Origin: Eledone cirrhosa
Lineage: Eukaryota
Assembly: GCA_964016885.1 (NCBI GenBank)
Contig: OZ024757.1
Span: 11,036,001 to 11,100,000 of the forward strand
DNA length: 64,000 nt
Direction of reading: 5' to 3'
Part shown: positions 39,001 to 63,000 of the stretch, one piece after another
How the letters are laid out: the number at the start of each line of letters is the position of its first letter
How positions within the stretch are numbered: the stretch's first letter is position 1
Notes under the pieces: model-generated
What the model saw: only the letters and a program-made list of their open reading frames with translations
Databases searched by the model: none
What the model was told of the DNA's origin: nothing
Made by a program: the position numbers and the translations under genes

Positions 39001-42000
39001 AAGGATGCAGTGTCTCAACAGCTAACAACTGATGCAGGTAGTTTGTTCCATGGAGGGTTTAAAGGATGCAGTGTCTCGACAGCTAACAACTGATGCAGGT
39101 AGTTTGTTCCATGGAGGTTTTAAAGGATGCATTGTCCTGACAGCTAACAACTGATGCAGGTAGTTTGTTCTATGGAGGTTTTAAAGGATCCAGTGTCTCG
39201 ACAGTTAAAAACTGATGCAGGTAGTTTGTTCCATGGAGGTTTTAAAGGATGCAGCGTCCCGACAGCTAACAACTGATGCAGGTAGTTTGTTCCATGGAGG
39301 TTTTAAAAGATGCAGCATCTCAACAGCTAACTACTAATGCAGGTAATTTGTTCCATGGAGGTTTTAAAGGATGCAGCGTCCCGACAGCTAACAACTGAAG
39401 CAGGTAGTTTGTTCCATGGAGATTTTAAAGGATGCAGTGTCCTGACAGCTAACAACTGATGCAGGTAGTTTGTTCCATGGAGGTTTTAAAGGATGCAGCG
39501 TCCCGACAGCTAACAACTGATGCAGGTAGTTTGTTCCATGGAGGTTTTAAAGGATGCAGTGTCTCGAGAGCTAACAACTGATGCAGGTAGTTTGTTCCAT
39601 GGAGGTTTTAAGGGATACAGTGTCTCGACAACTAACAACTGATGCAGGTAATTTGTTCCATGGAGGTTTTAAAAGATGCAGCATCTCAACAGCTAACTAC
39701 TGATGCAGGTAATTTGTTCCATGGAGGTTTTAAAGGATGCAGCGTCCTGACAGCTAAAACAACTGATGCAGGTATGGTAGTTTGTTCCATGGAGGTTTTA
39801 AAGGATGCAGTGTCTCGACAGCTAACAACTGATGCAGGTAGGCTTGTTCTGTTCCATGGAGGTTTTAAAGGATGCAGTGTCTCGACAGCTAACAACTGAT
39901 GCAGGCAGTTTGTTCCATGGAGGTTTTAAGGGATACAGTGTCTCGACAGCTAACAACTGATGCAGGTAGTTTGTTCCATGGAGGTTTTAAAGGATGCAGT
40001 GTCTCAACAGCTAACAACTGATGCAGGTAGTTTGTTCCATGGAGGTTTTAAAGGATGCAGTGTCTCGACAGCTAACAACTGATGCAGGTAGTTTGTTCCA
40101 TGGAGGTTTTAAAGGATGCAGTGTCTCGACAGCTAACAACTGATGCAGGCAATTTGTTCCATGGAGGTTTTAAAGGATGCAGTGTCTCAACAGCTAACAA
40201 CTGATGCAGGTAGTTTGTTCCATGGAGGTTTTAAAGGATGCAGTGTCCCGACAGCTAACAAATGATGCAGGTAGTTTGTTCCATGGAGATTTTAAAGGAT
40301 GCAGTGTCCCAACAGCTAACAACTGATGCAGGGAGTTTCTTCCATGGAGGTTTTAAAGGATGCAGTGTCCCGACAGCTAACAACTGATGCAGGTAGTTTG
40401 TTCCATGGAGGTTTTAAAGGATGCAGTGTCTCGACAGCTAACAACTGATGCAGGTAGTTTGTTCCATGGTGGTTTTAAAGGATGCAGTGTCCCGACAGCT
40501 AACAACTAATGCAGGTAGTTTGTTCCATGGAGGTTTTAAAGGATCCAGTGTCTCGACAGCTAAAAACTGATGCAGGTAGTTTGTTCCATGGAGGTTTTAA
40601 AAGATGCAGCATCTCAACAGCTAACTACTGATGCAGGTAATTTGTTCCATGGAGGTTTTAAAGGATGCAGTGTCCCAACAGCTAACAACTGATGCAGGGA
40701 GTTTCTTCCATGGAGGTTTTAAAGGATGCAGTGTCCCGACAGCTAACAACTGATGCAGGTAGTTTGTTCCATGGAGGTTTTAAAGGATGCAGTGTCTCGA
40801 CAGCTAACAACTGATGCAGGTAGTTTGTTCCATGGTGGTTTTAAAGGATGCAGTGTCCCGACAGCTAACAACTAATGCAGGTAGTTTGTTCCATGGAGGT
40901 TTTAAAGGATCCAGTGTCTCGACAGCTAAAAACTGATGCAGGTAGTTTGTTCCATGGAGGTTTTAAAGGATGCAGCGTCCCGACAGCTAACAACTGAAGC
41001 AGGTAATTTGTTCCATGGAGGTTTTAAAGGATGCAGCGTCCCGACAGCTAACAACTGATGCAGGTAGTTTGTTCCATGGAGGTTTTAAAGGATGCAGTGT
41101 CTCGACAGCTAACAACTGATGCTGGTAGGGTAGTTTGTTCCATGGAGGTTTTAAAGGATGCAGTGTCTCGACAGCTAAAAACTGATGCAGGTAGGCTTGT
41201 TCTGTTCCATGGAGGTTTTAAAGGATGCAGTGTCTCGACAGCTAACCACTGAATCAGGTAGTTTGTTCCATGGAGGTTTTAAGGGATACAGTGTCTCGAC
41301 AGCTAACAACTGATGCAGGTAATTTGTTCCATGGAGGTTTTAAAGGATGCAGCGTCCCGACAGCTAACAACTGATGCAGGTAGTTTGTTCCATGTAGGTT
41401 TTAATGGATGCAGTGTCTCGAGAGCTAACAACTGATGCAGGGAGTTTGTTCCATGGAGATTTGAAAGGATGCAGTGTCCCAACAGCTAACAACTGATGCA
41501 GGGAGTTTGTTCCATGGAGGTTTTAAAGGATGCAGTGTCCCGACAGCTAACAACTGATGCAGGTAGTTTGTTCCATGGAGGTTTTAAAGGATGCAGTGTC
41601 TCGACAGCTAACAACTGATGCAGGTAGTTTGTTCCATGGAGGTTTTAAAGGATGCAGTGTCCCAACAGCTAACAACTGATGCAGGTAGTTTGTTCCATGG
41701 AGGTTTTAAAGGATCCAGTGTCTCGACAGCTAAAAACTGATGCAGTTAGTTTGTTCCATGGAGGTTTTAAAAGATGCAGCATCTCAACAGCTAACTACTG
41801 ATGCAGGTAATTTGTTCCATGGAGGTTTTAAAGGATGCAGTGTCTCAACAGCTAACAACTGATACAGGTAGTTTGTTCCATGGAGGGTTTAAAGGATGCA
41901 GTGTCTCGACAGCTAACAACTGATGCAGGTAGTTTGTTCCATGGAGGTTTTAAAGGATGCATTGTCCTGACAGCTAACAACTGATGCAGGTAGTTTGTTC

Positions 42001-45000
42001 CATGGAGGTTTTAAAGGATCCAGTGTCTCGACAGCTAAAAACTGATGCAGGTAGTTTGTTCCATGGAGGTTTTAAAGGATGCAGCATCCCGACAGCTAAC
42101 AACTGATGCAGGTAGTTTGTTCCATGGAGGTTTTAAAAGATGCAGCATCTCAACAGCTAACTACTGATGCAGGTAATTTGTTCCATGGAGGTTTTAAAGG
42201 ATGCAGCGTCCCGACAGCTAACAACTGATGCAGGTAGTTTGTTCCATGGAGGTTTTAAAGGATGCAGCGTCCCGACAGCTAACAACTGATGCAGGTAGTT
42301 TGTTCCATGGAGGTTTTAAAGGATGCAGCGTCCCGACAGCTAACAACTGATGCAGGTAGTTTGTTCCATGTAGGTTTTAATGGATGCAGTGTCTCGAGAG
42401 CTAACAACTGATGCAGGTAGTTTGTTCCATGGAGGTTTTAAAGGATGCAGTGTCTCGACAGCTAACAACTGATGCAGGTAGTTTGTTCCATGGAGATTTT
42501 AAAGGATGCAGTGTCTCGAGAGCTAACAACTGATGCAGGTAGTTTGTTCCATGGAGGTTTTAAAGGATGCAGTGTCCCAACAGCTAACAACTGATGCAGG
42601 GAGTTTGTTCCATGGAGGTTTTAAAGGATGCAGTGTCTTGACAGCTAACAAATGATGCAGGTAGTTTGTTCCATGGAGGTTTTAAAGGATGCAGTGTCTC
42701 GACAGCTAACAACTGATGCAGGTAGTTTGTTCCATGGAGGTTTTAAAGGATGCAGTGTCCCGACAGCTAACAACTGATGCAGGTAGTTTGTTCCATGGAG
42801 GTTTTAAAGGATCCAGTGTCTCGACAGCTAAAAACTGATGCAGTTAGTTTGTTCCATGGAGGTTTTAAAAGATGCAGCATCTCAACAGCTAACTACTGAT
42901 GCAGGTAATTTGTTCCATGGAGGTTTTAAAGGATGCAGTGTCTCAACAGCTAACAACTGATGCAGGTAGTTTGTTCCATGGAGGGTTTAAAGGATGCAGT
43001 GTCTCGACAGCTAACAACTGATGCAGGTAGTTTGTTCCATGGAGGTTTTAAAGGATGCATTGTCCTGACAGCTAACAACTGATGCAGGTAGTTTGTTCTA
43101 TGGAGGTTTTAAAGGATCCAGTGTCTCGACAGTTAAAAACTGATGCAGGTAGTTTGTTCCATGGAGGTTTTAAAGGATGCAGCGTCCCGACAGCTAACAA
43201 CTGATGCAGGTAGTTTGTTCCATGGAGGTTTTAAAAGATGCAGCATCTCAACAGCTAACTACTAATGCAGGTAATTTGTTCCATGGAGGTTTTAAAGGAT
43301 GCAGCGTCCCGACAGCTAACAACTGAAGCAGGTAGTTTGTTCCATGGAGATTTTAAAGGATGCAGTGTCCTGACAGCTAACAACTGATGCAGGTAGTTTG
43401 TTCCATGGAGGTTTTAAAGGATGCAGCGTCCCGACAGCTAACAACTGATGCAGGTAGTTTGTTCCATGGAGGTTTTAAAGGATGCAGTGTCTCGAGAGCT
43501 AACAACTGATGCAGGTAGTTTGTTCCATGGAGGTTTTAAGGGATACAGTGTCTCGACAACTAACAACTGATGCAGGTAATTTGTTCCATGGAGGTTTTAA
43601 AAGATGCAGCATCTCAACAGCTAACTACTGATGCAGGTAATTTGTTCCATGGAGGTTTTAAAGGATGCAGCGTCCTGACAGCTAAAACAACTGATGCAGG
43701 TATGGTAGTTTGTTCCATGGAGGTTTTAAAGGATGCAGTGTCTCGACAGCTAACAACTGATGCAGGTAGGCTTGTTCTGTTCCATGGAGGTTTTAAAGGA
43801 TGCAGTGTCTCGACAGCTAACAACTGATGCAGGCAGTTTGTTCCATGGAGGTTTTAAGGGATACAGTGTCTCGACAGCTAACAACTGATGCAGGTAGTTT
43901 GTTCCATGGAGGTTTTAAAGGATGCAGTGTCTCAACAGCTAACAACTGATGCAGGTAGTTTGTTCCATGGAGGTTTTAAAGGATGCAGTGTCTCGACAGC
44001 TAACAACTGATGCAGGTAGTTTGTTCCATGGAGGTTTTAAAGGATGCAGTGTCTCGACAGCTAACAACTGATGCAGGCAATTTGTTCCATGGAGGTTTTA
44101 AAGGATGCAGTGTCTCAACAGCTAACAACTGATGCAGGTAGTTTGTTCCATGGAGGTTTTAAAGGATGCAGTGTCCCGACAGCTAACAAATGATGCAGGT
44201 AGTTTGTTCCATGGAGATTTTAAAGGATGCAGTGTCCCAACAGCTAACAACTGATGCAGGGAGTTTCTTCCATGGAGGTTTTAAAGGATGCAGTGTCCCG
44301 ACAGCTAACAACTGATGCAGGTAGTTTGTTCCATGGAGGTTTTAAAGGATGCAGTGTCTCGACAGCTAACAACTGATGCAGGTAGTTTGTTCCATGGTGG
44401 TTTTAAAGGATGCAGTGTCCCGACAGCTAACAACTAATGCAGGTAGTTTGTTCCATGGAGGTTTTAAAGGATCCAGTGTCTCGACAGCTAAAAACTGATG
44501 CAGGTAGTTTGTTCCATGGAGGTTTTAAAAGATGCAGCATCTCAACAGCTAACTACTGATGCAGGTAATTTGTTCCATGGAGGTTTTAAAGGATGCAGTG
44601 TCCCAACAGCTAACAACTGATGCAGGGAGTTTCTTCCATGGAGGTTTTAAAGGATGCAGTGTCCCGACAGCTAACAACTGATGCAGGTAGTTTGTTCCAT
44701 GGAGGTTTTAAAGGATGCAGTGTCTCGACAGCTAACAACTGATGCAGGTAGTTTGTTCCATGGTGGTTTTAAAGGATGCAGTGTCCCGACAGCTAACAAC
44801 TAATGCAGGTAGTTTGTTCCATGGAGGTTTTAAAGGATCCAGTGTCTCGACAGCTAAAAACTGATGCAGGTAGTTTGTTCCATGGAGGTTTTAAAGGATG
44901 CAGCGTCCCGACAGCTAACAACTGAAGCAGGTAATTTGTTCCATGGAGGTTTTAAAGGATGCAGCGTCCCGACAGCTAACAACTGATGCAGGTAGTTTGT

Positions 45001-48000
45001 TCCATGGAGGTTTTAAAGGATGCAGTGTCTCGACAGCTAACAACTGATGCTGGTAGGGTAGTTTGTTCCATGGAGGTTTTAAAGGATGCAGTGTCTCGAC
45101 AGCTAAAAACTGATGCAGGTAGGCTTGTTCTGTTCCATGGAGGTTTTAAAGGATGCAGTGTCTCGACAGCTAACCACTGAATCAGGTAGTTTGTTCCATG
45201 GAGGTTTTAAGGGATACAGTGTCTCGACAGCTAACAACTGATGCAGGTAATTTGTTCCATGGAGGTTTTAAAGGATGCAGCGTCCCGACAGCTAACAACT
45301 GATGCAGGTAGTTTGTTCCATGTAGGTTTTAATGGATGCAGTGTCTCGAGAGCTAACAACTGATGCAGGGAGTTTGTTCCATGGAGATTTGAAAGGATGC
45401 AGTGTCCCAACAGCTAACAACTGATGCAGGGAGTTTGTTCCATGGAGGTTTTAAAGGATGCAGTGTCCCGACAGCTAACAACTGATGCAGGTAGTTTGTT
45501 CCATGGAGGTTTTAAAGGATGCAGTGTCTCGACAGCTAACAACTGATGCAGGTAGTTTGTTCCATGGAGGTTTTAAAGGATGCAGTGTCCCAACAGCTAA
45601 CAACTGATGCAGGTAGTTTGTTCCATGGAGGTTTTAAAGGATCCAGTGTCTCGACAGCTAAAAACTGATGCAGTTAGTTTGTTCCATGGAGGTTTTAAAA
45701 GATGCAGCATCTCAACAGCTAACTACTGATGCAGGTAATTTGTTCCATGGAGGTTTTAAAGGATGCAGTGTCTCAACAGCTAACAACTGATACAGGTAGT
45801 TTGTTCCATGGAGGGTTTAAAGGATGCAGTGTCTCGACAGCTAACAACTGATGCAGGTAGTTTGTTCCATGGAGGTTTTAAAGGATGCATTGTCCTGACA
45901 GCTAACAACTGATGCAGGTAGTTTGTTCCATGGAGGTTTTAAAGGATCCAGTGTCTCGACAGCTAAAAACTGATGCAGGTAGTTTGTTCCATGGAGGTTT
46001 TAAAGGATGCAGCATCCCAACAGCTAACAACTGATGCAGGTAGTTTGTTCCATGGAGGTTTTAAAAGATGCAGCATCTCAACAGCTAACTACTGATGCAG
46101 GTAATTTGTTCCATGGAGGTTTTAAAGGATGCAGCGTCCCGACAGCTAACAACTGATGCAGGTAGTTTGTTCCATGGAGGTTTTAAAGGATGCAGCGTCC
46201 CGACAGCTAACAACTGATGCAGGTAGTTTGTTCCATGGAGGTTTTAAAGGATGCAGCGTCCCGACAGCTAACAACTGATGCAGGTAGTTTGTTCCATGTA
46301 GGTTTTAATGGATGCAGTGTCTCGAGAGCTAACAACTGATGCAGGTAGTTTGTTCCATGGAGGTTTTAAAGGATGCAGTGTCTCGACAGCTAACAACTGA
46401 TGCAGGTAGTTTGTTCCATGGAGATTTTAAAGGATGCAGTGTCTCGAGAGCTAACAACTGATGCAGGTAGTTTGTTCCATGGAGGTTTTAAAGGATGCAG
46501 TGTCCCAACAGCTAACAACTGATGCAGGGAGTTTGTTCCATGGAGGTTTTAAAGGATGCAGTGTCTTGACAGCTAACAAATGATGCAGGTAGTTTGTTCC
46601 ATGGAGGTTTTAAAGGATGCAGTGTCTCGACAGCTAACAACTGATGCAGGTAGTTTGTTCCATGGAGGTTTTAAAGGATGCAGTGTCCCGACAGCTAACA
46701 ACTGATGCAGGTAGTTTGTTCCATGGAGGTTTTAAAGGATCCAGTGTCTCGACAGCTAAAAACTGATGCAGTTAGTTTGTTCCATGGAGGTTTTAAAAGA
46801 TGCAGCATCTCAACAGCTAACTACTGATGCAGGTAATTTGTTCCATGGAGGTTTTAAAGGATGCAGTGTCTCAACAGCTAACAACTGATGCAGGTAGTTT
46901 GTTCCATGGAGGGTTTAAAGGATGCAGTGTCTCGACAGCTAACAACTGATGCAGGTAGTTTGTTCCATGGAGGTTTTAAAGGATGCATTGTCCTGACAGC
47001 TAACAACTGATGCAGGTAGTTTGTTCTATGGAGGTTTTAAAGGATCCAGTGTCTCGACAGTTAAAAACTGATGCAGGTAGTTTGTTCCATGGAGGTTTTA
47101 AAGGATGCAGCGTCCCGACAGCTAACAACTGATGCAGGTAGTTTGTTCCATGGAGGTTTTAAAAGATGCAGCATCTCAACAGCTAACTACTAATGCAGGT
47201 AATTTGTTCCATGGAGGTTTTAAAGGATGCAGCGTCCCGACAGCTAACAACTGAAGCAGGTAGTTTGTTCCATGGAGATTTTAAAGGATGCAGTGTCCTG
47301 ACAGCTAACAACTGATGCAGGTAGTTTGTTCCATGGAGGTTTTAAAGGATGCAGCGTCCCGACAGCTAACAACTGATGCAGGTAGTTTGTTCCATGGAGG
47401 TTTTAAAGGATGCAGTGTCTCGAGAGCTAACAACTGATGCAGGTAGTTTGTTCCATGGAGGTTTTAAGGGATACAGTGTCTCGACAACTAACAACTGATG
47501 CAGGTAATTTGTTCCATGGAGGTTTTAAAAGATGCAGCATCTCAACAGCTAACTACTGATGCAGGTAATTTGTTCCATGGAGGTTTTAAAGGATGCAGCG
47601 TCCTGACAGCTAAAACAACTGATGCAGGTATGGTAGTTTGTTCCATGGAGGTTTTAAAGGATGCAGTGTCTCGACAGCTAACAACTGATGCAGGTAGGCT
47701 TGTTCTGTTCCATGGAGGTTTTAAAGGATGCAGTGTCTCGACAGCTAACAACTGATGCAGGCAGTTTGTTCCATGGAGGTTTTAAGGGATACAGTGTCTC
47801 GACAGCTAACAACTGATGCAGGTAGTTTGTTCCATGGAGGTTTTAAAGGATGCAGTGTCTCAACAGCTAACAACTGATGCAGGTAGTTTGTTCCATGGAG
47901 GTTTTAAAGGATGCAGTGTCTCGACAGCTAACAACTGATGCAGGTAGTTTGTTCCATGGAGGTTTTAAAGGATGCAGTGTCTCGACAGCTAACAACTGAT

Positions 48001-51000
48001 GCAGGCAATTTGTTCCATGGAGGTTTTAAAGGATGCAGTGTCTCAACAGCTAACAACTGATGCAGGTAGTTTGTTCCATGGAGGTTTTAAAGGATGCAGT
48101 GTCCCGACAGCTAACAAATGATGCAGGTAGTTTGTTCCATGGAGATTTTAAAGGATGCAGTGTCCCAACAGCTAACAACTGATGCAGGGAGTTTCTTCCA
48201 TGGAGGTTTTAAAGGATGCAGTGTCCCGACAGCTAACAACTGATGCAGGTAGTTTGTTCCATGGAGGTTTTAAAGGATGCAGTGTCTCGACAGCTAACAA
48301 CTGATGCAGGTAGTTTGTTCCATGGTGGTTTTAAAGGATGCAGTGTCCCGACAGCTAACAACTAATGCAGGTAGTTTGTTCCATGGAGGTTTTAAAGGAT
48401 CCAGTGTCTCGACAGCTAAAAACTGATGCAGGTAGTTTGTTCCATGGAGGTTTTAAAAGATGCAGCATCTCAACAGCTAACTACTGATGCAGGTAATTTG
48501 TTCCATGGAGGTTTTAAAGGATGCAGTGTCCCAACAGCTAACAACTGATGCAGGGAGTTTCTTCCATGGAGGTTTTAAAGGATGCAGTGTCCCGACAGCT
48601 AACAACTGATGCAGGTAGTTTGTTCCATGGAGGTTTTAAAGGATGCAGTGTCTCGACAGCTAACAACTGATGCAGGTAGTTTGTTCCATGGTGGTTTTAA
48701 AGGATGCAGTGTCCCGACAGCTAACAACTAATGCAGGTAGTTTGTTCCATGGAGGTTTTAAAGGATCCAGTGTCTCGACAGCTAAAAACTGATGCAGGTA
48801 GTTTGTTCCATGGAGGTTTTAAAGGATGCAGCGTCCCGACAGCTAACAACTGAAGCAGGTAGTTTGTTCCATGGAGGTTTTAAAGGATGCAGTGTCTCGA
48901 CAGCTAACAACTGATGCAGGTAGTTTGTTCCATGGGGGTTTTAAAGGATGCAGTGTCTTGACAGGTAACAAATGATGCAGGTAGTTTGTTCCATGGAGAT
49001 TTTAAAGGATGCAGTGTCTCGAGAGCTAACAACTGATGCAGGTAGTTTGTTCCATGGAGGTTTTAAAGGATGCAGTGTCTCGACAGCTAACAACTGATGC
49101 AGGTAGTTTGTTCCATGGAGGTTTTAAAGGATGCAGTGTCCCGACAGCTAACAACTAATGCAGGTAGTTTGTTCCATGGAGGTTTTAAAGGATCCAGTGT
49201 CTCGACAGCTAAAAACTGATGCAGGTAGTTTGTTCCATGGAGGTTTTAAAAGATGCAGCATCTCAACAGCTAACTACTGATGCAGGTAATTTGTTCCATG
49301 GAGGTTTTAAAGGATGCAGCGTCCCGACAGCTAACAACTGATGCAGGTAGTTTGTTCCATGGAGGTTTTAAAGGATGCAGTGTCTCGACAGCTAACAACT
49401 GATGCTGGTAGGGTAGTTTGTTCCATGGAGGTTTTAAAGGATGCAGTGTCTCGACAGCTAAAAACTGATGCAGGTAGGCTTGTTCTGTTCCATGGAGGTT
49501 TTAAAGGATGCAGTGTCTCGACAGCTAACCACTGAATCAGGTAGTTTGTTCCATGGAGGTTTTAAGGGATACAGTGTCTCGACAGCTAACAACTGATGCA
49601 GGTAATTTGTTCCATGGAGGTTTTAAAGGATGCAGCGTCCCGACAGCTAACAACTGATGCAGGTAGTTTGTTCCATGTAGGTTTTAATGGATGCAGTGTC
49701 TCGAGAGCTAACAACTGATGCAGGTAGTTTGTTCCATGGAGGTTTTAAAGGATGCAGTGTCTCGACAGCTAACAACTGATGCAGGTAGTTTGTTCCATGG
49801 AGATTTTAACGGATGCAGTGTCTCGAGAGCTAACAACTGATGCAGGTAGTTTGTTCCATGGAGGTTTTAAAGGATGCAGTGTCCCAACAGCTAACAACTG
49901 ATGCAGGGAGTTTGTTCCATGGAGGTTTTAAAGGATGCAGTGTCTTGACAGCTAACAAATGATGCAGGTAGTTTGTTCCATGGAGATTTGAAAGGATGCA
50001 GTGTCCCAACAGCTAACAACTGATGCAGGGAGTTTGTTCCATGGAGGTTTTAAAGGATGCAGTGTCCCGACAGCTAACAACTGATGCAGGTAGTTTGTTC
50101 CATGGAGGTTTTAAAGGATGCAGTGTCTCGACAGCTAACAACTGATGCAGGTAGTTTGTTCCATGGAGGTTTTAAAGGATGCAGTGTCCCGACAGCTAAC
50201 AACTGATGCAGGTAGTTTGTTCCATGGAGGTTTTAAAGGATCCAGTGTCTCGACAGCTAAAAACTGATGCAGTTAGTTTGTTCCATGGAGGTTTTAAAAG
50301 ATGCAGCATCTCAACAGCTAACTACTGATGCAGGTAATTTGTTCCATGGAGGTTTTAAAGGATGCAGTGTCTCAACAGCTAACAACTGATACAGGTAGTT
50401 TGTTCCATGGAGGGTTTAAAGGATGCAGTGTCTCGACAGCTAACAACTGATGCAGGTAGTTTGTTCCATGGAGGTTTTAAAGGATGCATTGTCCTGACAG
50501 CTAACAACTGATGCAGGTAGTTTGTTCCATGGAGGTTTTAAAGGATCCAGTGTCTCGACAGCTAAAAACTGATGCAGGTAGTTTGTTCCATGGAGGTTTT
50601 AAAGGATGCAGCGTCCCGACAGCTAACAACTGATGCAGGTAGTTTGTTCCATGGAGGTTTTAAAAGATGCAGCATCTCAACAGCTAACTACTGATGCAGG
50701 TAATTTGTTCCATGGAGGTTTTAAAGGATGCAGCGTCCCGACAGCTAACAACTGATGCAGGTAGTTTGTTCCATGGAGGTTTTAAAGGATGCAGTGTCTC
50801 GACAGCTAACAACTGAAGCAGGTAGTTTGTTCCATGGAGGTTTTAAAGGATGCAGTGTCCTGACAGCTAACAACTGATGCAGGTAGTTTGTTCCATGGAG
50901 GTTTTAAAGGATGCAGCGTCCCGACAGCTAACAACTGATGCAGGTTGTTTGTTCCATGGAGATTTTAAAGGATGCAGTGTCTCGAGAGCTAACAACTGAT

Positions 51001-53858
51001 GCAGGTAGTTTGTTCCATGGAGGTTTTAAGGGATACAGTGTCTCGACAACTAACAACTGATGCAGGTAATTTGTTCCATGGAGGTTTTAAAGGATGCAGT
51101 GTCTCGACAGCTAACAACTGATGCAGGTAGTTTGTTCAATGGAGGTTTTAAAGGATCCAGTGTCTCGACAGCTAAAAACTGATGCAGGTAGTTTGTTCCA
51201 TGGAGGTTTTAAAAGATGCAGCATCTCAACAGATAACTACTGATGCATGTAATTTGTTCCATGGAGGTTTTAAAGGATGCAGCGTCCCGACAGCTAACAA
51301 CTGATGCAGGTATGGTAGTTTGTTCCATGGAGGTTTTAAAGGATGCAGTGTCTCGACAGCTAACAACTGATGCAGGTAGGCTTGTTCTGTTCCATGGAGG
51401 TTTTAAAGGATGCAGTGTCTCGACAGCTAACAACTGATGCAGGCAGTTTGTTCCATGGAGGTTTTAAGGGATACAGTGTCTCGACAGCTAACAACTGATG
51501 CAGGTAGTTTGTTCCATGGAGGTTTTAAAGGATGCAGTGTCTCAACAGCTAACAACTAATGCAGGTAGTTTGTTCCATGGAGGTTTTAAAGGATGCAGTG
51601 TCTCGACAGCTAACAACTGATGCAGGTAGTTTGTTCCATGGAGGTTTTAAAGGATGCAGTGTCTCGACAGCTAACAACTGATGCAGGCAATTTGTTCCAT
51701 GGAGGTTTTAAAGGATGCAGTGTCTCAACAGCTAACAACTGATGCAGGTAGTTTGTTCCATGGAGGTTTTAAAGGATGCAGTGTCTCGACAGCTAACAAC
51801 TGATGCAGGTAGTTTGTTCCATGGAGGTTTTAAAGGATGCAGTGTCCTGACAGCTAACAACTGATGCAGGTAATTTGTTCCATGGAGGTTTTAAAGGATG
51901 CAGTGTCTCGACAGCTAACAACTGATGCAGGTAGTTTGTTCCATGGAGGTTTTAAAGGATGCAGTGTCTCGACAGCAAACAACTGATGCAGGTAGTTTGT
52001 TCCATGGAGGTTTTAAAGGATGCATTGTCCTGACAGCTAACAACTGATGCAGGTTGTTTGTTCCATGGAGGTTTTAAAAGATGCAGCATCTCAACAGCTA
52101 ATTACTGATGCAGGTAATTTGTTCCATGGAGATTTTAAAGGATGCAGCGTCCCGACAGCTAACAACTGATGCAGGTAGGGTAGTTTGTTCCATGGAGGTT
52201 TTAAAGGATGCAGTGTCTCGACAGCTAACAACTGATGCAGGTAGGCTTGTTCTGTTCCATGGAGGTTTTAAAGGATGCAGTGTCCCGACAGCTAACAACT
52301 GATGCAGGCAGTTTGTTCCATGGAGGTTTTAAGGGATACAGTGTCTCGACAGCTAACAACTGATGCAGGTAATTTGTTCCATGGAGGTTTTAAAGGATGC
52401 AGTGTCTCGACAGCTAACAACTGATGCAGGCAGTTTGTTCCATGGAGGTTTTAAGGGATACAGTGTCTCGACAGCTAACAACTGATGCAGGTAGTTTGTT
52501 CCATGGAGGTTTTAAAGGATGCAGTGTCTCAACAGCTAACAACTGATGCAGGTAGTTTGTTCCATGGAGGTTTTAAAGGATGCAGTGTCTCGACAGCTAA
52601 CAACTGATGCAGGTAGTTTGTTCCATGGAGGTTTTAAAGGATGCAGTGTCACGACAGCTAACAACTGATGCAGGCAATTTGTTCCATGGAGGTTTTAAAG
52701 GATGCAGTGTCTCAACAGCTAACAACTGATGCAGGTAGTTTGTTCCAAGGAGGTTTTAAAGGATGCAGTGTCTCGACAGCTAACAACTGATGCAGGTAGT
52801 TTGTTCCATGGAGGTTTTAAAGGATGCAGTGTCCTGACAGCTAACAACTGATGCAGGTAATTTGTTCCATGGAGGTTTTAAAGGATGCAGTGTCTCGACA
52901 GCTAACAACTGATGCAGGTAGTTTGTTCCATGGAGGTTTTAATGGATGCAGTGTCTCGACAGCTAACAACTGATGCAGGTAGTTTGTTCCATGGAGGTTT
53001 TAAAGGATGCATTGTCCTGACAGCTAACAACTGATGCAGGTAGTTTGTTCCATGGAGGTTTTAAAGGATCCAGTGTCTCGACAGCTAAAAACTGATGCAG
53101 GTAGTTTGTTCCATGGAGGTTTTAAAAGATGCAGCATCTCAACAGCTAACTACTGATGCAGGTAATTTGTTCCATGGAGGTTTTAAAGGATGCAGCGTCC
53201 CGACAGCTAACAACTGATGCAGGTAGGGTAGTTTGTTCCATGGAGGTTTTAAAGGATGCAGTGTCTCGACAGCTATCAACTGATGCAGGTAGGCTTGTTC
53301 TGTTCCATGGAGGTTTTAAAGGATGCACTGTCTCGACAGCTAACAACTGATGCAGGCAGTTTGTTCCATGGAGGTTTTAAGGGATACAGTGTCTCGACAG
53401 CTAACAACTGATGCAGGTAATTTGTTCCATGGAGGTTTTAAAGGATGCAGTGTCTCAACAGCTAACAACTGCTGCAGATAGTTTGTTCCATGGAGGTTTT
53501 AAAGGATGCAGTGTCTCGACAGCTAACAACTGATGCAGGCAGTTTGTTCCATGGAGGTTTTAAGGGATACAGTGTCTCGACAGCTAACAACTGATGCAGG
53601 TAATTTGTTCCATGGAGGTTTTAAAGGATGCAGTGTCTCAACAGCTAACAACTGATGCAGGTAGTTTGTTCCATGGAGGTTTTAAAGGATGCAGTGTCCC
53701 GACAGCTAACAACTGATGCAGGTAATTTGTTCCATGGAGGTTTTAAAGGATGCAGTGTCTCGACAGCTAGCAACTGATGCAGGTAGTTTGTTCCATGGAG
53801 GTTTTAAAGGATGCAGCGTCCCGACACCTAACAACTGATGCAGGTAGTTTGTTCCATG
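1..53858. repeat. 61-bp tandem satellite array (about 880 monomers), continues past left edge
   Basis: Consensus AACTGATGCAGGTAGTTTGTTCCATGGAGGTTTTAAAGGATGCAGTGTCTCGACAGCTAAC repeated head-to-tail in one orientation, no unique spacers; last GTTCCATG ends at 53858. Copy number estimated as length/61. Confidence 0.99.
33145..48860. repeat. Higher-order repeat: 4 x 3928 bp (64 monomers + 24 bp of insertions)
   Basis: Marker ORFs recur every 3928 bp (33202/37130/41058/44986 and 35714/39642/43570/47498); 64x61+11+13=3928. Boundaries approximate. Confidence 0.93.
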
Positions 53859-54066
53859 CTTCAGCAACTCTGAGCGTGAAACAATGTTTCCGAAAGTCAT
53901 GGGAATTGTTCCGTTTTCTGACTTTGTAAATATGTCTACGGGTGTTAGACAGATGGTATTCAAAAAGGTGTTCAGGGTTGTTGTTGGCAAGATGGTTAAT
54001 AATCTTATGGGTGTCTACCAAGTCAGCTGCCAGATGTCGGAGCTTCAATGTATCCATGCCTAGGGA
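53794..54066 (-). mobile_element. 3' end of CR1/L2-like LINE ORF2 (5'-truncated remnant); probable satellite source
   Basis: Translation MDTLKLRHLAADLVDTHKII...LFEYHLSNTRRHIYKVRK...RKHCFTLRVAEAWNKLPASVVRCRDAASFKTSM fits the CR1-clade ORF2 C-terminal pattern L..RR...DL...YKI...TRGH..K...R..FF..RV...WN.LP..VV....FK. Confidence 0.85.
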
Positions 54067-54252
54067 AGAATGGATGTTTTAAAGGATGCACTGTCCCGAC
54101 ATCTAACAACTGATGCATATTTTTTTTTTTCATGCTTCAGCAACTCTGAGCGTGAAAACATGTTTCCGAAAGACATGGGAGCTGTGCTGTTTTCTGATTT
54201 TGTTGGCATGCCCACGGGTGTTAGACATGAAATTCAAAAAGGTGCTCAGAGT
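54064..54252 (-). mobile_element. Second, more decayed copy of the same LINE ORF2 3' segment
   Basis: Homologous to about 53798-53975; minus strand reads SEHLFEFH/SNTRGHANKIRKQHSSHVFRKHVFTLRVAEA...ASVVRCRDSASFKTSILP with a 2-bp frameshift and a poly(T) tract replacing the WNKL codons. Confidence 0.85.
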
Positions 54253-54509
54253 ATATTCTCTTCCTGACATTAAGAAAAAAGAAGGAAAAAAACCATAGAA
54301 GCAAGGAAATAGTTTTTAGAAGATAGAGTTTATGGTACAAGCACAATTTTCTCTCCTTTTCAATTAATAATAACAAATTATGAAGAAATTTAATCAAAAT
54401 TTAATAAAAAATTTATTTGGAAAAAATAAATGTAAAAATGAAAATAAAGCCTATGATAAAAGTAAAAATCAATTGAAAATAACAGACAATTGAATTTTGA
54501 TATTTTTGT

Positions 54510-54578
54510 GAATGAGATGAGGTAGAGTGTTGAATGAGATGAGGGGTGGTGTTGAATGAGATGAGGGTGGTGTTGGTA
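54510..54578. repeat. 22-bp tandem repeat, about 3 copies
   Basis: GAATGAGATGAGG at 54510, 54532 and 54554. Confidence 0.7.
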
Positions 54579-54716
54579 GAGGGTAAGGAAACTTTATTAA
54601 GATCCTTATTATAATTATCAACATCTATTTTTCTATAGCATTGTGTTGGACAATAATGTTGCTTTCCTTTGGTCAAGGTTGACACTGACAGTTGAATCTC
54701 CAGAATATTATAACTT

Positions 54717-54802
54717 CACAGGGATATCACAGACTGTTGAATATCACAGGGATATCACAGTCTATTGGATATCACAGGGATATCTGTGGCAGACTGTTGG
54801 AA
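54717..54802. repeat. 28-bp tandem repeat, about 3 copies
   Basis: CACAGGGATATC at 54717, 54745 and 54773. Confidence 0.75.
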
Positions 54803-54804
54803 GA

Positions 54805-54944
54805 TTAACCCTTTAGCATTTAAACCAGCCATATCCAGCCAGAATTCCCTCACCTCTTTCTCTTCAAACTGGATGTAACCGACTGCTTATACATATATTA
54901 AGGTATTGTTATCAAAATAAATAATATCAAAATCTCATAGATTT
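54805..54944. mobile_element. Possible end fragment of a non-autonomous TTAA-targeting (piggyBac-like) element
   Basis: Begins TTAA-CCCTTTAGCATTTAAACC; TTAA followed by CCC is the piggyBac terminal signature. No convincing partner TIR seen. Confidence 0.35.
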
Positions 54945-55079
54945 GATATTATGTGAGGTATGTGAGGTAAAGCCTTTACCATGAATATACAATAGTATAT
55001 ATAGAGTAATGTAAATGTTATGTGAGATATTATGTGAGGTAAAGCCTTTACTGTGAAAATACAATAGTATATATAGAGT
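54945..55079. repeat. 72-bp minisatellite, left part (about 2 units)
   Basis: Unit GATATTATGTGAGGTAAAGCCTTTACTGTGAAAATACAATAGTATATATAGAGTAATGTAAATGTTATGTGA; AAAGCC at 54969 and 55041. Confidence 0.9.
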
Positions 55080-55085
55080 GGTTTC

Positions 55086-55091
55086 TTTATT
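55086..55091 (-). terminator. Polyadenylation signal AATAAA at element 3' end
   Basis: TTTATT on + strand, about 6 bp from the junction with the 72-bp repeat. Confidence 0.65.
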
Positions 55092-55316
55092 TGCCACTAG
55101 GGCACAAAAGGTAGGGACAGATACAAGGGGGGAAGTTTACATATAATTAACGAGTACAAAAATATAACAATGAAATAACAACAACAAACGAAGTCCTCAA
55201 TAGGGAGGGGGCATTAACATGGGTCGCACACACCCCGGAAAAAATGTGCAACCCTTCTCCTCAGGAGCACAAAGAGTAGGTGCTTCCCTCGTCTCCTCTT
55301 TTTCCTCTTCTTTCAC

Positions 55317-55690
55317 CTACAGGCTGATATAGAGAGAAGACACATTCACTCTGGCCATTCTCCCTACTTTCACCCACCTTTCATAAAGCTTGCTGGGGTA
55401 GAGCACCTCTCTCTCCATTCTGATCCTTCTTTTAAAATGGTATTTGAAAAAGGGGACCAGTTGTTGGCCGGAGAGAAAGGTGTCTGACCTCAGCCCTTTC
55501 AGCCTCGTCCACCATACAACTTCTTTAGCCATGGCTATCACACAGAGAAAAACCGCCTGTCCTTCGTTTTATAAAGGGGGAGGCGGTTTGATCGTGACAA
55601 TGGACTCGATGGTCAACCGGATTGGTCCCACCCTCGACAGTAGTCGTTCCACATAGCCCCACAGGTCAGCAATGCCTGGGCAGTGTACGA
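55317..55690 (-). pseudogene. ORF2 C-terminal segment (after the zinc-finger/zf-RVT-like region), frameshifted
   Basis: Reads FVHCPGIADLWGYVERLLSRVGPIRLTIESIVTIKPP.../AVFLCVIAMAKEVVWWTRLKGL...LYISL*; C-P...W and W..R patterns are typical of L1/Tx1 ORF2 tails. Confidence 0.75.
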
Positions 55691-57451
55691 ATCCAAGTTG
55701 ATCAGGGCCCCACCAAAGCCGGGTTCATTCCCTACCCTCTCTATGATGTATCGCATAAGGTGGAGATTGTCGTGAATGGACCTGGACGGGATTGCGCATG
55801 TCTGCGCTTCTCCCACCAGGTTTCCGACGACAAGCGCCAACCTCTTCGCTAACACCTTGGCCAAAATCTTTAACTCTGTATTTAGCAGAGTTATGGGCCT
55901 GAAGTTACTTATGTCATCCCCCTTGTTCTCATCCTTCCTCACCAGCGTAACTACGCCCTTGGTCACAGAACTGGGAATTCTCCCGTTCTGCTGCCAGTTG
56001 CAGTAGACCGCTTCGAGGATATCGGAGAACAAGTCCGGCATCGCTACATATAGCTCGTATGGTAGACCATCGAGACCCGGGGATTTGCGTTTGCCGCATT
56101 GGCTCAGCGCCGCCCCTATCTCAGCAGCTGAAATCGTCCTTTCGCAGGACTTCGCCTCCGCATCCGAGAGGCGCGGCAGACCGTCGAGGTATGGATTGAA
56201 ATCCATAGTCTCACCCGGCACGCCGCCCTTCTCGAACAGTCGTGCAAAGTGCCGCTGAAAGGCCGCACACATCTGCCCAGGTTCAAGGATCACACGCCCA
56301 TCCTGGTCCTTCAAAGAATGAATCGTGGACTTGTTCCCACTTTTTGCCTCTGTCACTCGGGCCCAGCTCACAGCTTTGGCTCCCTCATTACCCAGAGCAC
56401 TTATTTTACTCCTGACAACGCAGCCTTCATGCTTCACCTCAAAGAAATGGTCTAAGGCCATTCTTGATGCCAGCACGCCGGCTACATTGCCACTCCTAAT
56501 CGCCTCTTCTACTCTATCTACTAATTCCCTTTCCGTCTTGTTCCTATCCCTTGCTAATTCCTGACTAAAACCTATCGATTCTATTCTAATTGCTCTCTTA
56601 AGAGAGCTCCACCACCTGTTGTTGACAATTGCCCCTGTCAAACTCTGCTTAACTAACGTGCTAATCCGTTTACTGTAAGCTTTGCTTGTCGGTAAGGACA
56701 AGTTCAGCTTCCAGTAACCGGGTCCCTGTCTATGGGTTCTATCAAGGTTGGCTATGCAGGTCACTAACTTGTGTTCCGAATAGTCAACCATGAACATTTT
56801 TGGACAGCTAAATGTGTCCCTATCCTTCTCTCTAACTAGGACCCTATCTAGGTACGACCTAGATGTTCCACTGCGATTGGTCCACGTCCATAGTGGTACA
56901 GTCGGAAAATCTAGTCGATATCTATCGGCCAGGTCAAATCGGCCGATTAACCTTTTGAGGCTTTTACACCCCCCTCTATTGGCACATGCCCCTACATAGT
57001 CCCAACGTGCATCCAGGATACCATTCCAGTCCCCCACTAAAAGCAAGGAGCGGGACGTTCCCAGAAAAGTTTCCAGACGTTGAAAGTATTCCGGCCGCGC
57101 TGCCCAAAAAGGGGCGTACACAGCTATTAGTCTAAGGGCTCCACTTTCACTACTGCCGACGTCTAAAACCACCAGTCGACCCTCCGGGTCCAGGTGCACC
57201 TTCTGTATGGCGAGGCCCAGGTGTTTTCGCAGCAGAACGACAACTCCACCCCCACCCCCCGGTTGACAGAGAGATACGAAGATCTCAAAGTCGTCGAAGA
57301 GGGGCGCCAGTTGGTGCTCGCTGCTGATCCTGGACTCGCAAATAGCCATTACATCCATTCTATGCGACCTGAGATCGTTTAAAAGTTTGCCTTGTTTCCA
57401 AGACAGTCCCAGGCCACGTACATTCAGACACCCAACTCTTATATCAGCCAT
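55691..57451 (-). pseudogene. ORF2 N-terminal part: APE-like endonuclease and truncated reverse transcriptase
   Basis: Open frame 57451->55613 with motifs LNVRGL, CESR, VYAP, GDWN, SYLDRV, SEH, GPGYWKLN, KSPGLDGLPYELY, NFRPITLLNTELKILAK, AQTC, LINLD; RT homology stops at 55691, no YADD motif. Confidence 0.92.
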
Positions 57452-57472
57452 GTTGGTTAAAAGAGGAAGGAC

Positions 57473-59212
57473 CTACCTGTTCGGCTCCTGAGGAGCAGGT
57501 TGCACAATATCCATGGGCGTATTGGAGGGGTTGTTTGGTGGGGTGTTGTTCTGTGGTGGAGTGGGGGTGTTTGGTGAGGTGTGGGTGGGGAAACGTTTCA
57601 AGAGGACGCGGTTATAGGGTCGAGTACATGTTTTCCCCACGTTCTCAGGAAAGTTCTCTCTTAGTTTTGCATAGGTGTCCATTGGGAGTCTTATCATTTT
57701 TAAATGCGGTTTGTTGGCCGCGATTGCAAAAATTGCCCTTCAGTTTCCACCGAAGGGTCTTTGTGTATTGTTTTTACTAGTTCTTTGTTATTTGTGTTAA
57801 TGTATGTATACTGTTTTATTTGTGTTGTGTTTGTTTGTTGTTCTTGTGTGTGCTTACGTTTTGTTGTATGTGTTATGTTTTAGAGTGGGGCGGATTTTGT
57901 TTGTTCTGTTTGTTTTGTTTTTGTTGGTGGTTGTGTGTTTGTTTCGTTTATGTTCGAGTGGTGCTTTCTTTTTTTCCTTTTTACAGGTTGAAAGGGTCCC
58001 CCCTCTTCGTCACTAGGTGCCGTTTCAGCTGGGTCCTCGTCCGTGCTGTCGGGTAGTGGTGTATTTTGGGGTTTTGTTGTGTTTGTGTGTGTTTTGGGAG
58101 TTGTTTTGGGTGGGGCCGTGTCTTGTCTTATTTTTCCGTGTTGTTTTTGTTGTTGTTGTGGTGGTGGTGGTGGAGGTGGTGGTGGCGGTGGTGGTGTGTG
58201 GGGTGTAGGCAAAAGAGCCTTTTTTTTGTCAATTGAGGACAGGCAGCCCCTAGATGACCCCTGCTTGAGCTTGAACAGTAGTAACATATGGGCCTCCTAC
58301 CCTCGGCTGAAATGTATATAAATGTTTCTCCACCGAGGGACACCCTCTGTGGTATTCTAGCTATTCGTTCTGGTCTCATTTGGACCAGAACCTCCACGCT
58401 CAAACCGCCGAAAACGTCTGTGGTGACTTCTCTTCTCCTGCTGAGAGGATTCCGTCCTCGTCTTCTAAAAATCCTGTTAGTACCCAGGAAATGCATGCAT
58501 TTGGCCGGATTCCGGAGACCCTTATTTTCTGCGTTCTTTTCCCTAAATATGTGGGGGAAAATGTGTGTAGCTTGGAAACAATTGGCGCCACAGAGTATTT
58601 CCTGGCCGTCAATTGATCCTTCATTAGCACCGTTATATTCCCATAGTGTGGCCCTTTTTGTATGAACGATATATCACTCCACACATTTTTTAGGACCAGT
58701 TCAATTTCTTTTTGGGATAATTGAGTTGGTTTCCTTGTTATGTTGGAAATTGTTCTGAAAGATATCGTTCTTAGTGTCGTGTCTCTTTTGATTTCTTGTG
58801 GGGAGGTGATTGTGAAGTCTCCTCCTTCTTTGAAAGTTACATACTGTTTTGCTTCCTTCATCTTTTCTCTCAGAGTTGTAATGTCCAGTTGCTTGCAGGT
58901 CTGTGTTTTCCGGACCGCCTGTGCAAAGGAGGCACCAGTAGTGGGTTCGCTTTGTTTGGTGTTATCGTTATTTTTTCCTTGGTTGGTGTTGTGACTATTG
59001 CTGTTATTGTCATTGTTGTTTTTGTCTGCGTTTATGTGACTTTCTGGGTTTTCACCCATTTTTACAAATTTTTCTTTTAATTCCGTGTTCCATGTTTCTT
59101 TTGCAGAAGTGAGGAGGGAAGACTTAGAGCCTTGTGCTTCTAGCTTCCCTGTATCACCTTTCTTAGGGGGCGTGGCTTTCTTGTTAGAATGAGATGTGAA
59201 AATTCCGTCCAT
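57473..59212 (-). pseudogene. ORF1 (gag-like nucleic-acid-binding protein), broken into several frames
   Basis: Probable ATG at 59212 (MDGIFTSH); pieces 58400-59305, 58128-58496, 57880-58287 and 57473-57697 can be joined by frameshifts (about 58445 and the T-run at about 58220); CCHC knuckle and Pro/Thr/Lys-rich tail; stops 21 bp before the ORF2 ATG. Confidence 0.8.
58138..58198. repeat. (TGT)n/(GGT)n microsatellite encoding poly-Pro/poly-Gln within ORF1
   Basis: GTTGTTGTTGTGGTGGTGGTGGTGGAGGTGGTGGTGGCGGTGGTGGT on the + strand. Confidence 0.8.
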
Positions 59213-59422
59213 TTCTATTAGTTTGCCGTAATAAATTTTAAATTGGAAAATTCGCCCCAAAAAGGGCCGAAAATAAATAAACTCAAAGTTTGACCAACAA
59301 GGCAAGGGGTTAATGTATATTACAGTATAAAAAAATTAATCAAAACTCACTTTTGAGTAAGTAAATCCAACTCGGTAGCCGAGCTTGTTCACACACGTCA
59401 ATACACGTCTCTCGTATACGAG

Positions 59423-59892
59423 ATGTTATGTGAGATATTATGTGAGGTAAAGCCTTTACTGTGAAAATACAATAATATATATAGAGGAATGTAAATGTTA
59501 TGTGAGATATTATGTGAGGTAAAGCCTTTACTGTTAATATATAAAAGTATATGTAGAGTAATGTAAATATTATGTGAGGTAACGCCTTTACCATGAATTT
59601 ACAATAGTATATATAGAGTAATGTAAATGTTATGTGAGATATCATGTGAGGTAAAGTTTTACTGTGAAAATACACTAGTAATGTAAATGTTATGTGAGAT
59701 ATTATGTGAGGTAAACCTTTACCATGAAAATACAATAGTATATATAGAGTAATATAAATGTTATGTGAGATATTATGTGAGGTAAAGCCTTTACTGTGAA
59801 AATACAATAGTAATGTAAATGTTATGTGAGGAATTATGTGAGGTAAAGCCTTTAGCGTGAAAATACAATAGTATATATAGAGTAATGTAAAT
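59423..59892. repeat. 72-bp minisatellite, right part (about 7 units, some with internal deletions)
   Basis: Same unit and orientation as 54945-55079. Confidence 0.92.
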
Positions 59893-60018
59893 ACTAAAGG
59901 GTAAAACCAGAAGTTCTCTACTTTTTTGGACCATTGCCCCTCTGATGGCCACAAAATACCCTCAGCTTTCCCCAGTGCTATTTCTAGGCAGACCTACCTA
60001 CATGCAAATAATATACAT

Positions 60019-63000
60019 AGTATAGGTCAAATGGGAAATTATAACACAACCCTTTCAGTGAATCCCTTTAGTATAGTTCAAATGGGAAATTATAACACAA
60101 CCATATCAGTGAAGCCCTTTAGTATAGGTCAACTGGGAAATTGTAACATATATAACCCTATCAGTGAAGCCCTTTAGTATAGGTCAACTGGGGAATTATA
60201 ACATTTACAACCCTATCAGTGTAGCACTTTAGTATAGGTCAACTGGAGAATTATAACACAACCCTTTCAGTGAAACCCTTTAGTATAGGTCAAATGGGAA
60301 ATTATAACACAACCCTTTCAGTGCAGCCCTTTAGTATAGGTCAACTGGGGAATTATAACATATATAACCCTATCAGTGAAGCCCTTTAGTATAGGTCAAC
60401 TGGTGAATTATAACACATATAACCCTATCAGTGAAGCCCTTTAGTATAGGTCAACTGGGGAATTATAACATATGTAACCCTATCAGTAAAGCCCTTTAGT
60501 ATAGGTCAACAGGGGAATTGTAACATATATAACCCTATCAGTGAAGCCCTTTAGTATAGGTCAACTGGGAAAATATAACATATATAACCCTATCAGTGAA
60601 GCCCCTTAATATAGGTCAACTGGGGTATTATAACATATAACCCTATCATTGAAGCCCTTTAGGATAGGTCAACTTTGAAATATGTAAGCCTATCAGTAAA
60701 GCCCTTTAGTATAGGTCAACTGGGGAATTGTAACATATATAACCCTATCAGTGAAGCCCTTTAGTATAGGTCAACTGGGAAATTATAACACATATAACCC
60801 TATCAGTGAAGCCCTTTAGTAGAGGTCAACAGGGGAATTATAACATATAACCCTATCAGTGAAGCCCTTTAGGATAGGTCAACTGTAAAATTATACACAT
60901 ATAACCCTATCAGTGAAGCACTTTAATATAGGTAAAATGGGGTATTATAACATATAACCCTATCAGTGAAGCCCTTTAGTATAGGTCAACTGGTGAATTA
61001 TAACATATAACCCTATTAGTGAAGCCCTTTAGTATAGGTCAACTAGGGGATTATAACATATAACCCTATCAGTGAAGCCCTTTAGTATAGGTTAACTGGG
61101 GAATTATAACACAACCCTATCAGTGAAGCCCTTTAGTATAGGTCGATTGGGGAATTATAACACATAACCCTATCAGTGAAGCCCTTTAGTATAGGTCAAC
61201 TGGTAAATTATAACATATATAATCCTATCAGTGAAGCCCTTTAGTATAGGTCAACTGGGGAATTATAACAAATATAACCCTATCAGTGAAGCCCTTTAAT
61301 ATAGGTCAACTGGGGTATTATAACATATAACCCTATCAGTGAAGCCCTTCAGGATAGGTCAACTTGGAAATTATAACATATAAACCTATCAGTGATCCCT
61401 TTTATATAGGTCAACTGGGGAATTATGACATATACAACCTTATCAGTGAAGCCCTTTAGTATAGGTCAACTGGGAAATTATAACACACATAACCCTATCA
61501 GTAAAGCCCTTTAGTATAGGTCAACTGGGGAATTGTAACATATATAACCCTATCAGTGAAGCCCTTTAGTATAGGTCAACTGGTAAATTTTAACATATAA
61601 CCCTAGCAGTGAAGCTCTTTAATGTAGGTCAACTGGGAAGTTATAACATATAACCCTATCAGTGAAGCCTTTTAGTATAGGTCAACTGGGGAATTATAAC
61701 ATTTACAACCCTATCAGTGTAGCACTTTAGTATAGGTCAACTGGAGAATTATAACACAACCCTTTCAGTGAAACCCTTTAGTATAGGTCAAATGGGAAAT
61801 TATAACACAACCCTTTCAGTGCAGCCCTTTAGTATAGGTCAACTGGGGAATTATAACACACATAACCCTATCAGTAAAGCCCTTTAGTATAGGTCAACTG
61901 GGGAATTGTAACATATATAACCCTATCAGTGAAGCCCTTTAGTATAGGTCAACTGGTAAATATTAACATATAACCCTATCAGTGAAGCTCTTTAATGTAG
62001 GTCAACTGGGAAGTTATAACATATAACCCTAGCAGTGAAGCCTTTTAGTAGAGGTCAACTGGGGAATTATAACACATGTAACGCTATCAGTGAAGCCCTT
62101 TAGTATAGGTCAACTGGGGAATTATAACACATATAACCCTATCAGTGAAGCCCTTTAGTATAGGTCAACTGGGGAATTATAACAGACATAACCCTATCAG
62201 TGAAGTCCTTTAGTACAGGTCAACTGGGAAATTTTAACATATAACCCTATCAGTGAAGCTCTTTAATATAGGTCAACTGGGAAATTATAACGTATAACCC
62301 TAGCAGTGAAGCCTTTTAGTAGAGGTCAACTGGGGAATTATAACACATATAACCCTATCAGTGAAGCCCTTTAGTATAGGTCAACTGGGAAATTATAACA
62401 GTTAACCCTATCAGTGAAGCCCATTAATATAGTTCAACTGGGAAATTATAACATATATAACACTATCAGTGAAGCCCTTTAGTATAGGTCAACTGGGGAA
62501 TTATAACACAAACCTATCACTGAAGCCCTTTTGTATAGGTCAACAGGGGAATTATAACACAACCCTATCAGTGAAGCCCTTTAGTATAGGTCAAATGGGA
62601 AATTATAACACAACCCTATCAGTGAAGCCCTTTAGTATAGGTCAACTGGGAAATTGTAACATATATAACCCTATCATTGAAGCCCTCTAGTATAGGTCAA
62701 CTGGGGAATTATAACATATAACCCTATTAGTGAAGCCCTTTAGTATAGGTCAACTGGGGAATTGTAACACAACCCTATCAGTGAATCCCTTTAGTATAGG
62801 TCAACTGGGAAATTATAACATATATAACCCTATCAGTGAAGCCCCTTAATATAGGTCAACTGGGGTATTATAACATATAACCCTATCATTGAAGCCCTTT
62901 AGGATAGGTCAACTTGGAAATTATAACATATAAACCTATCAGTGATCCCTTTTATATAGGTCAACTGGGGAATTATCGCATATTCAACCATGTCAGTGAA

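Follow-up and report, generated by a model that had tools for sequence, protein, structure and literature searches.

The window analysed here, a stretch of 64,000 nucleotides from Eledone cirrhosa (contig OZ024757.1), holds a satellite array with a 61-bp unit (positions 1–53858, minus strand), for which TRF reports a period of 61, 877.9 copies and 92% matches. At position 1 the array leaves the window, and its length is accordingly at least 53.9 kb. It can be divided into 877 monomers, 821 of them exactly 61 bp long, with a mean divergence of 4.1% from the consensus; the 821 comprise 174 distinct sequences, and divergence follows no gradient along the array. A lag comparison brings out a higher-order repeat of 64 monomers, or 3928 bp, in about four near-identical copies (33001–48928, no strand assigned): at a lag of 64 monomers there is a run of 76 identical monomers, and at a lag of 3928 bp there are 15 mismatches over the 12 kb from 33001 to 45000. 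We infer from this block pattern a recent multi-kilobase duplication or unequal exchange, with an effect of the assembly on the near-identical blocks also possible. As a long head-to-tail array (877 monomers) with local homogenisation and a higher-order repeat, the sequence has two of the properties of satellite DNA.

Some smaller features of the array concern the junction, the point at which one monomer meets the next. In 55 monomers, of 62, 66, 67 and 68 bp (661–53305), the extra length comes from a short local duplication or insertion close to the junction. Monomers of 66 or 68 bp stand next to one of 67 bp as a pair 27 times over the whole array, and these pairs mark an old block. The 34-bp monomers implied by two period-34 rows in the TRF output (58% and 55% matches) are not real, judging from the monomer lengths. 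The 8-base windows starting at monomer positions 55–60 take ranks 1–6 of 61 for conservation; we do not read this as selection on the junction, as these windows hold no CpG and overlap the anchor used for splitting the array.

At its right-hand edge the array passes into copy B, a fragment of about 270 bp from the 3' end of ORF2 of a CR1-like LINE (53794–54063, minus strand). Copy B is a 90-codon open frame, and the frame continues into the array unbroken. The minus strand of the array is thus the sense strand of the LINE, and the monomer encodes approximately the last 20 codons of ORF2 that precede the residues S-M-L-P. Because these monomer-encoded residues match the ORF2 C-terminus of relatives and the monomer is continuous with copy B, the array is also a tandem repeat derived from a transposable element. 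The copy B peptide has seven matches among proteins of similar length and three among longer ones; the best is a predicted protein of Octopus vulgaris (81% identity, E 1e-40), and the four named matches are predicted proteins of O. vulgaris or O. sinensis. For P0010, a longer relative, the predicted structure matches RT and endonuclease-RT clusters (TM 0.93), and the record name of P0011 is RNA-directed DNA polymerase, jockey-like. Pfam returned nothing above the cut-off for the LINE peptides P0001 and P0009–P0011; the window contains only the last 90 codons of ORF2. Judged from these relatives, copy B appears to be the ORF2 C-terminus of a non-LTR retrotransposon. From its C-terminal motifs we take the element to be a CR1. 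A second basis for this label is that CR1 occurs in Octopus; the O. vulgaris annotation, as summarised in PMC13282606, holds 80 satellite families and 169 CR1 families. One predicted zinc-finger-like protein (P0015) ends in an antisense reading of the LINE 3' end, which is probably an artefact of gene prediction or an exonisation.

Copy B is followed by a second fragment of the LINE, copy A (54064–54254, minus strand), which is decayed, with frameshifts and poly-A decay, and has not been amplified. The two copies differ by 29 mismatches in 181 aligned bases (16%). Copy A has CATG at 54134–54131 and CATT at 54072–54069, with a spacing of 62 bp; at approximately 54116–54130 the bases just inside its upstream CATG have decayed to an A-run on the sense strand, with the one additional base that makes the spacing 62 bp. 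The preliminary description of this DNA took copy A to read TCC ATT CTT CCC and to show how the LINE originally went on at this point. It does read so, but the continuation of the LINE is not what is seen there: only the five bases CTTCC are true continuation, and copy B then follows directly. In the relatives the protein runs on as S-M-L-P-(E/V)-x-x-x-H-Y-T to its end. Low-complexity translations in P0013 and P0008 hint, at the protein level only, at a simple-repeat tail just past the stop.

The two copies therefore join at CTTCC (54064–54068, minus strand, from the sequence itself), where the right arm of the inverted repeat described below has its 3' foot. Copy B starts with codons for T-S-L, and P0002 and P0011 show T-S-L-G-M-D, matching this start. 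The join is compatible with a second microhomology, of 5 bp, with which the shared third codon base agrees. It may have been produced by a jump of the reverse transcriptase or by a deletion between two tandem insertions.

The remainder of the window holds further repeats. Two minor tandem repeats, of 22 and 28 bp, lie at 54509–54575 and 54716–54784, between the LINE relic and a second, unrelated LINE at approximately 55092–59422 on the minus strand. The latter is broken after the start of the RT and has ORF1-like frames upstream; its ORF at 55613–57472 matches the endonuclease PF03372 (E 3e-12) and, below the cut-off, the start of the RT PF00078 (E 6e-5). It is presumably of the Tx1/L1 type. 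An AT-rich tandem repeat of 60/72 bp flanks it at approximately 54916–55091 and at 59423–59892, the repeat being the same on both sides, which suggests that this LINE was inserted into the AT-rich repeat. From 60018 to 64000 there is a second satellite with a unit of 53–55 bp, a 106-bp dimer and about 75 copies, and it runs off the window.

The boundaries of the 61-bp monomer can be described from two occurrences of CATG at the edge of the array. The upstream CATG (53855–53858, minus strand, read directly) is the LINE's own and lies in the A-W codons, and the left arm of the inverted repeat is centred on it. The CATG of the first junction (53794–53797, minus strand, also read directly) joins the downstream site of the LINE (TC-CATG) to the upstream one (CATG-GA). 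The preliminary description had placed CATG at both positions, 61 bp apart, with the minus-strand codons GCA TGG (A-W) and TCC ATG (S-M), and both the positions and the codons are correct. It had also explained the CCATGG of nearly every monomer by fusion of the two sites, which is borne out: G-CATG-G and C-CATG-C give C-CATG-G, and CCATGG is found at 838 of the 877 junctions, CATG itself being kept at 865. Around the first junction (53792–53799) there is an 8-bp palindrome, an 8-mer with 817 occurrences in the array. A single type accounts for all 877 junctions, also where the monomer is one of the 56 that are not 61 bp long, and there was therefore one founding event. The 61-bp spacing of the two CATGs, on the other hand, is circular as evidence. 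The CATG at 53794 is itself the fusion junction, so that any word at the array edge recurs at the same spacing; the significance of the pair accordingly depends entirely on the parent element having had the downstream CATG.

Copy A has CATT at this downstream site, which at face value is the outcome (a consensus lacking the downstream CATG) that the preliminary description had set against its own proposal. The relatives give a fuller picture of the parent. There are 10 sense-strand relatives, seven of which read through the site in frame (P0006 and P0011 stop earlier, and P0008 is frameshifted). These seven have S-M-L-P at the site in six cases and S-L-L-P in one, and the spacing from W to M is 20 residues in all of them; the Ser codon is TCC in both window copies. 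When the shifted frame of P0008 is intersected with P0003, P0005, P0007 and P0009, a single nucleotide solution is left except for the last free base, and it gives TCC ATG CTT CC at the downstream site; 0 of 20,000 random peptides produced such a fit. The solution misfits P0002, P0004 and P0010 over the full eight residues, in which the neighbouring residues differ. A peptide search in the antisense frames gave three matches, two of them crossing the site, and these two antisense-frame relatives alone yield (C/T)TCCATGCTTCC there. Altogether, the downstream bases are fixed as TCCATGCTTCC by three relatives whose translation is in another frame, the two antisense ones having been placed in register by motif with the alignment as a guide. 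Both the S-M-L-P of six in-frame relatives in seven and the frame intersections support what the preliminary description had assumed, a parent LINE with CATG at both breakpoints. On these translations, which include six unnamed records placed in register by motif and stand beside copy A, with CATT, as the sole copy whose downstream site is readable as DNA, the downstream CATG is real at the level of the family, and copy A's Ile is a decayed Met.

A point missed in the earlier account is that the two sites form an inverted repeat. The upstream GAAG-CATG-GA (left arm, 53853–53862, minus strand, read directly) and the downstream TC-CATG-CTTC deduced from the relatives make an inverted repeat that is perfect over 10 bp and encloses a loop of 53 nt, and in copy A the decayed right arm (54065–54074, minus strand) matches the reverse complement of the left arm at 9 of 10 bases. 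Both arms are centred on the palindrome CATG; the CATG direct repeat is therefore a by-product of the inverted repeat, and the monomer extends from one axis to the other. Over 5.1 kb of unique DNA, none of 1,488 pairs with a microhomology of at least 4 bp has arms reaching 9 bp. In copy B the hairpin CATG pair is one of about 40 pairs of at least 4 bp (39 were counted), which puts the coincidence at about 2.5%, a post hoc value for a single event.

For folding, we used a model of the segment as it would have been before the duplication, joined from pieces of the window. Folded as RNA, this segment is predicted to form the stem with pair probabilities of 0.88–1.0 and an energy z of −2.2 (24 of 1,000 shuffles were as low); as DNA the predicted fold is weak, with a z of −1.8 (50 of 1,000 shuffles). 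The stem does not form when copy A is folded unaltered, and Rfam gave 0 matches over 53000–61000. Since the Met is followed by only nine residues in all seven in-frame relatives, the stem would end about 25 nt upstream of the stop. The left arm is compatible with the pairing in 7 of 12 relatives and altered in the other five (four with the same G-to-A change, one with CATA), and compensation is not visible. CR1 elements are described as having a 3' hairpin and a microsatellite, thought to be a recognition site of the RT (PMC8665684), and stem-loops are described as common in stringent LINEs (PMC3747384). A causal role of the hairpin in the first duplication is plausible.

The microhomology at the breakpoint comprises exactly 4 bp and is bounded by a mismatch at either end. 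At a random duplication, a microhomology of at least 4 bp has a probability of 0.016 in theory, 0.020 among 10,431 copy B junctions and 0.027 among 305,122 junctions in unique DNA; this chance of about 2% is fair support for a first step guided by homology. It does not follow that the 4-mer alone ‘defines’ the boundaries of the monomer, as had been proposed: the same 270 bp of copy B contain 33 longer direct repeats (at least 5 bp, five of them 7 bp) that were not used. One 7-bp direct repeat lies within the monomer, its copies 27 bp apart, and is intact in 608 of the 877 monomers; it has given rise to no monomer of 34 or 88 bp among the 877. The proposal of a single duplication from CATG to CATG does explain every junction, whereas the routes suggested for it (slippage, unequal exchange or RT template jumping) are indistinguishable from the window. 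The CATG accounts for the first duplication step only, and the later growth of the array does not require it.

The junction was also sought elsewhere. A peptide spanning two array junctions gave one candidate, and longer proteins yielded no match with E up to 1; a peptide of the junction plus its flank gave three matches among 1.84 billion representatives, none with the junction residues. Both are weak negatives, because gene prediction rarely picks up the frames across the junction. In bacterial and archaeal genomes a 19-nt motif had three matches, where about nine were expected, and none extended beyond 27 bases; we regard these as chance. Neither arm motif is present in the supplement of PMC13282606, which consists of summary tables; the 61-bp satellite may sit unnamed in the external repeat library of that study. 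A literature search that lay outside most subscription journals found neither a 61-bp octopus satellite nor a monomer bounded by the axis of a LINE hairpin.

The reading that we favour, with a probability of roughly 0.7, is a duplication between the paired CATGs in a 3' fragment of a CR1-like LINE, perhaps helped by a fold-back, and followed by growth driven by exchange. The starting point would be an integrated CR1-like LINE 3' fragment with two CATGs 61 bp apart, just before the ORF2 stop. In one misalignment at the DNA level, during DNA synthesis or repair, a strand ending in the downstream CATG would have re-annealed to the upstream CATG, and the 61 bp would have been copied a second time. 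In single-stranded DNA the inverted repeat may have folded back on itself, which would have brought the two CATGs together and favoured them over the longer direct repeats; for this part of the proposal we consider the odds even. The expected product is TC-CATG-GA at the junction, and this is the sequence seen there, in the one type to which all 877 belong. The 61-bp homology created in this way could then have led, by unequal exchange and duplication of multi-kilobase blocks, to an array that is at least 54 kb long and contains higher-order repeats, a pattern that is seen in the window and for which exchange is the proposed process.

The same junction would result if the CATG had guided the duplication, the inverted repeat had taken no part and the unit had simply happened to expand. 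A microhomology of 4 bp suffices for template switching, the arm is not strictly conserved, only one event is available, and the hairpin coincidence, given that there is a hairpin, is only about 1 in 40. The 33 direct repeats of at least 5 bp and the 7-bp repeat, which 608 of 877 monomers keep, have never served, however, and both junctions of the 460-bp relic lie on the right arm, with the weak point that in the case of the A/B junction anything near the 3' end of the element falls close to it; we hold this explanation possible, and would wager somewhat against it. Satellite families commonly spread between loci, and the junction could have been born at another locus, copy B having gained the array through recombination or conversion across the shared 61 bp. 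The terminal monomer, which differs from the consensus at 3 of 61 sites, with one variant that occurs in only 2 of 821 monomers, would suit such an origin; the frame of copy B, unbroken into the array, and the lack of a divergence gradient towards the array edge do not, and we think it improbable.

The position of the unit at the 3' end of the element, where reverse transcription starts, leads to a different proposal, namely that the LINE RT made the first duplication at insertion through a jump back to the downstream CATG, either within one RNA or onto a second, as it unwound the hairpin. The A/B junction also resembles a jump onto the foot of the hairpin. Template slippage at LINE 3' ends is described for UnaL2 (PMC3747384), and younger transposable elements are reported to yield more tandem repeats (PMC3389668). 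Against this, neither a target-site duplication nor the 3' end is visible in the window, the 16% difference between copies A and B fits two insertions later fused by deletion equally well, and an origin at the RNA level is inseparable there from one at the DNA level. We consider the RT jump unlikely. Geometry is the attraction of a further proposal, in which the palindromic CATG/CATG stem, by nicking or an exchange of strands across it, would release a circle that was amplified by rolling circle and re-inserted by homology: it yields a circle of exactly 61 nt and exactly the observed junction. Satellite routes by stem-loop and rolling circle have been proposed for MITEs and Helitrons (PMC12628747). 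Monomers that are 4% divergent and arranged in blocks reflect later exchange that would hide any first burst; we think this origin very unlikely.

To return to the favoured reading, duplication between the CATGs with possible help from the fold-back, its wider form would be that the 3' hairpin, used by this LINE family in reverse transcription and palindromic at its core, is a built-in site of satellite birth, with exact 61-bp duplications arising repeatedly at many octopus copies. This generalisation is doubtful. If it held, a recognition structure of a retrotransposon would set both the length and the boundaries of a new satellite monomer, and exchange at the CATG/CATG stem would also yield reciprocal deletions or circles. 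A multi-copy LINE is a natural experiment for deciding whether microhomology alone, or microhomology within a hairpin, chooses the unit.

How a large satellite begins can rarely be seen, as the parent sequence has usually gone; here the parent is still attached, in frame. The array is a genuine further case, resolved to the base, of a process already known, and what is new is that the CATG pair forms the palindromic centres of an inverted repeat and likely RNA hairpin. Of the human tandem repeats that stem from transposable elements, known models explained about 6% (PMC3389668), and further background is available in PMC4758252 and PMC8967140. The model of Haber and Louis and of Jurka and Gentles, as presented in PMC6947457 and PMC3389668, has a duplication arise between short flanking repeats of 5–10 bp within a retroelement. 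As in the Alu-derived minisatellites of Jurka and Gentles, a short-repeat duplication in a retroelement is followed here by exchange between longer homologies, and in the parent a direct repeat stands on either side of the unit; unlike in those cases, as these sources describe them, the repeat is 4 bp rather than 5–10 bp and forms the palindromic centre of an inverted repeat, and the product, instead of a minisatellite, is an array that spans at least 54 kb and has higher-order repeats. Chicken, cetaceans and rodents are known to have CR1- or L1-related satellites (PMC9659126, PMC6947457). Like the chicken HinfI satellite, the CR1-related chicken centromeric repeats, the cetacean common satellite (from the 3' part of L1) and PROsat (from L1 ORF2), the array consists of tandem LINE sequence, which in such cases is often from the 3' end or ORF2 (PMC9659126, PMC6947457); compared with these as summarised in the same sources, it is a cephalopod case with an all-coding 61-bp monomer, a parent attached in frame and base-resolved breakpoints. 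Maize CRM1TR and CRM4TR are likewise tandem repeats wholly from one parent retroelement with a defined junction, but the element is an LTR element, CRM4TR monomers are about 1,370 bp, and its authors report finding no single-step direct repeats at the junction (PMC3648361), whereas one is present here. The predicted stem-loop would lie shortly before a putative 3' simple-repeat tail, as the 3' hairpins of CR1 and the stringent LINEs do before theirs (PMC8665684, PMC3747384), and differs from those, as these sources present them, in lying inside the ORF2 coding sequence, in its 53-nt loop and in a stem that is not strictly conserved. Finally, the models for Xstir and the Angel MITE also propose inverted repeats of transposable elements as seeds of tandem repeats; there they are the terminal inverted repeats of DNA transposons, whereas here the candidate seed is an internal hairpin of a LINE (PMC12628747).
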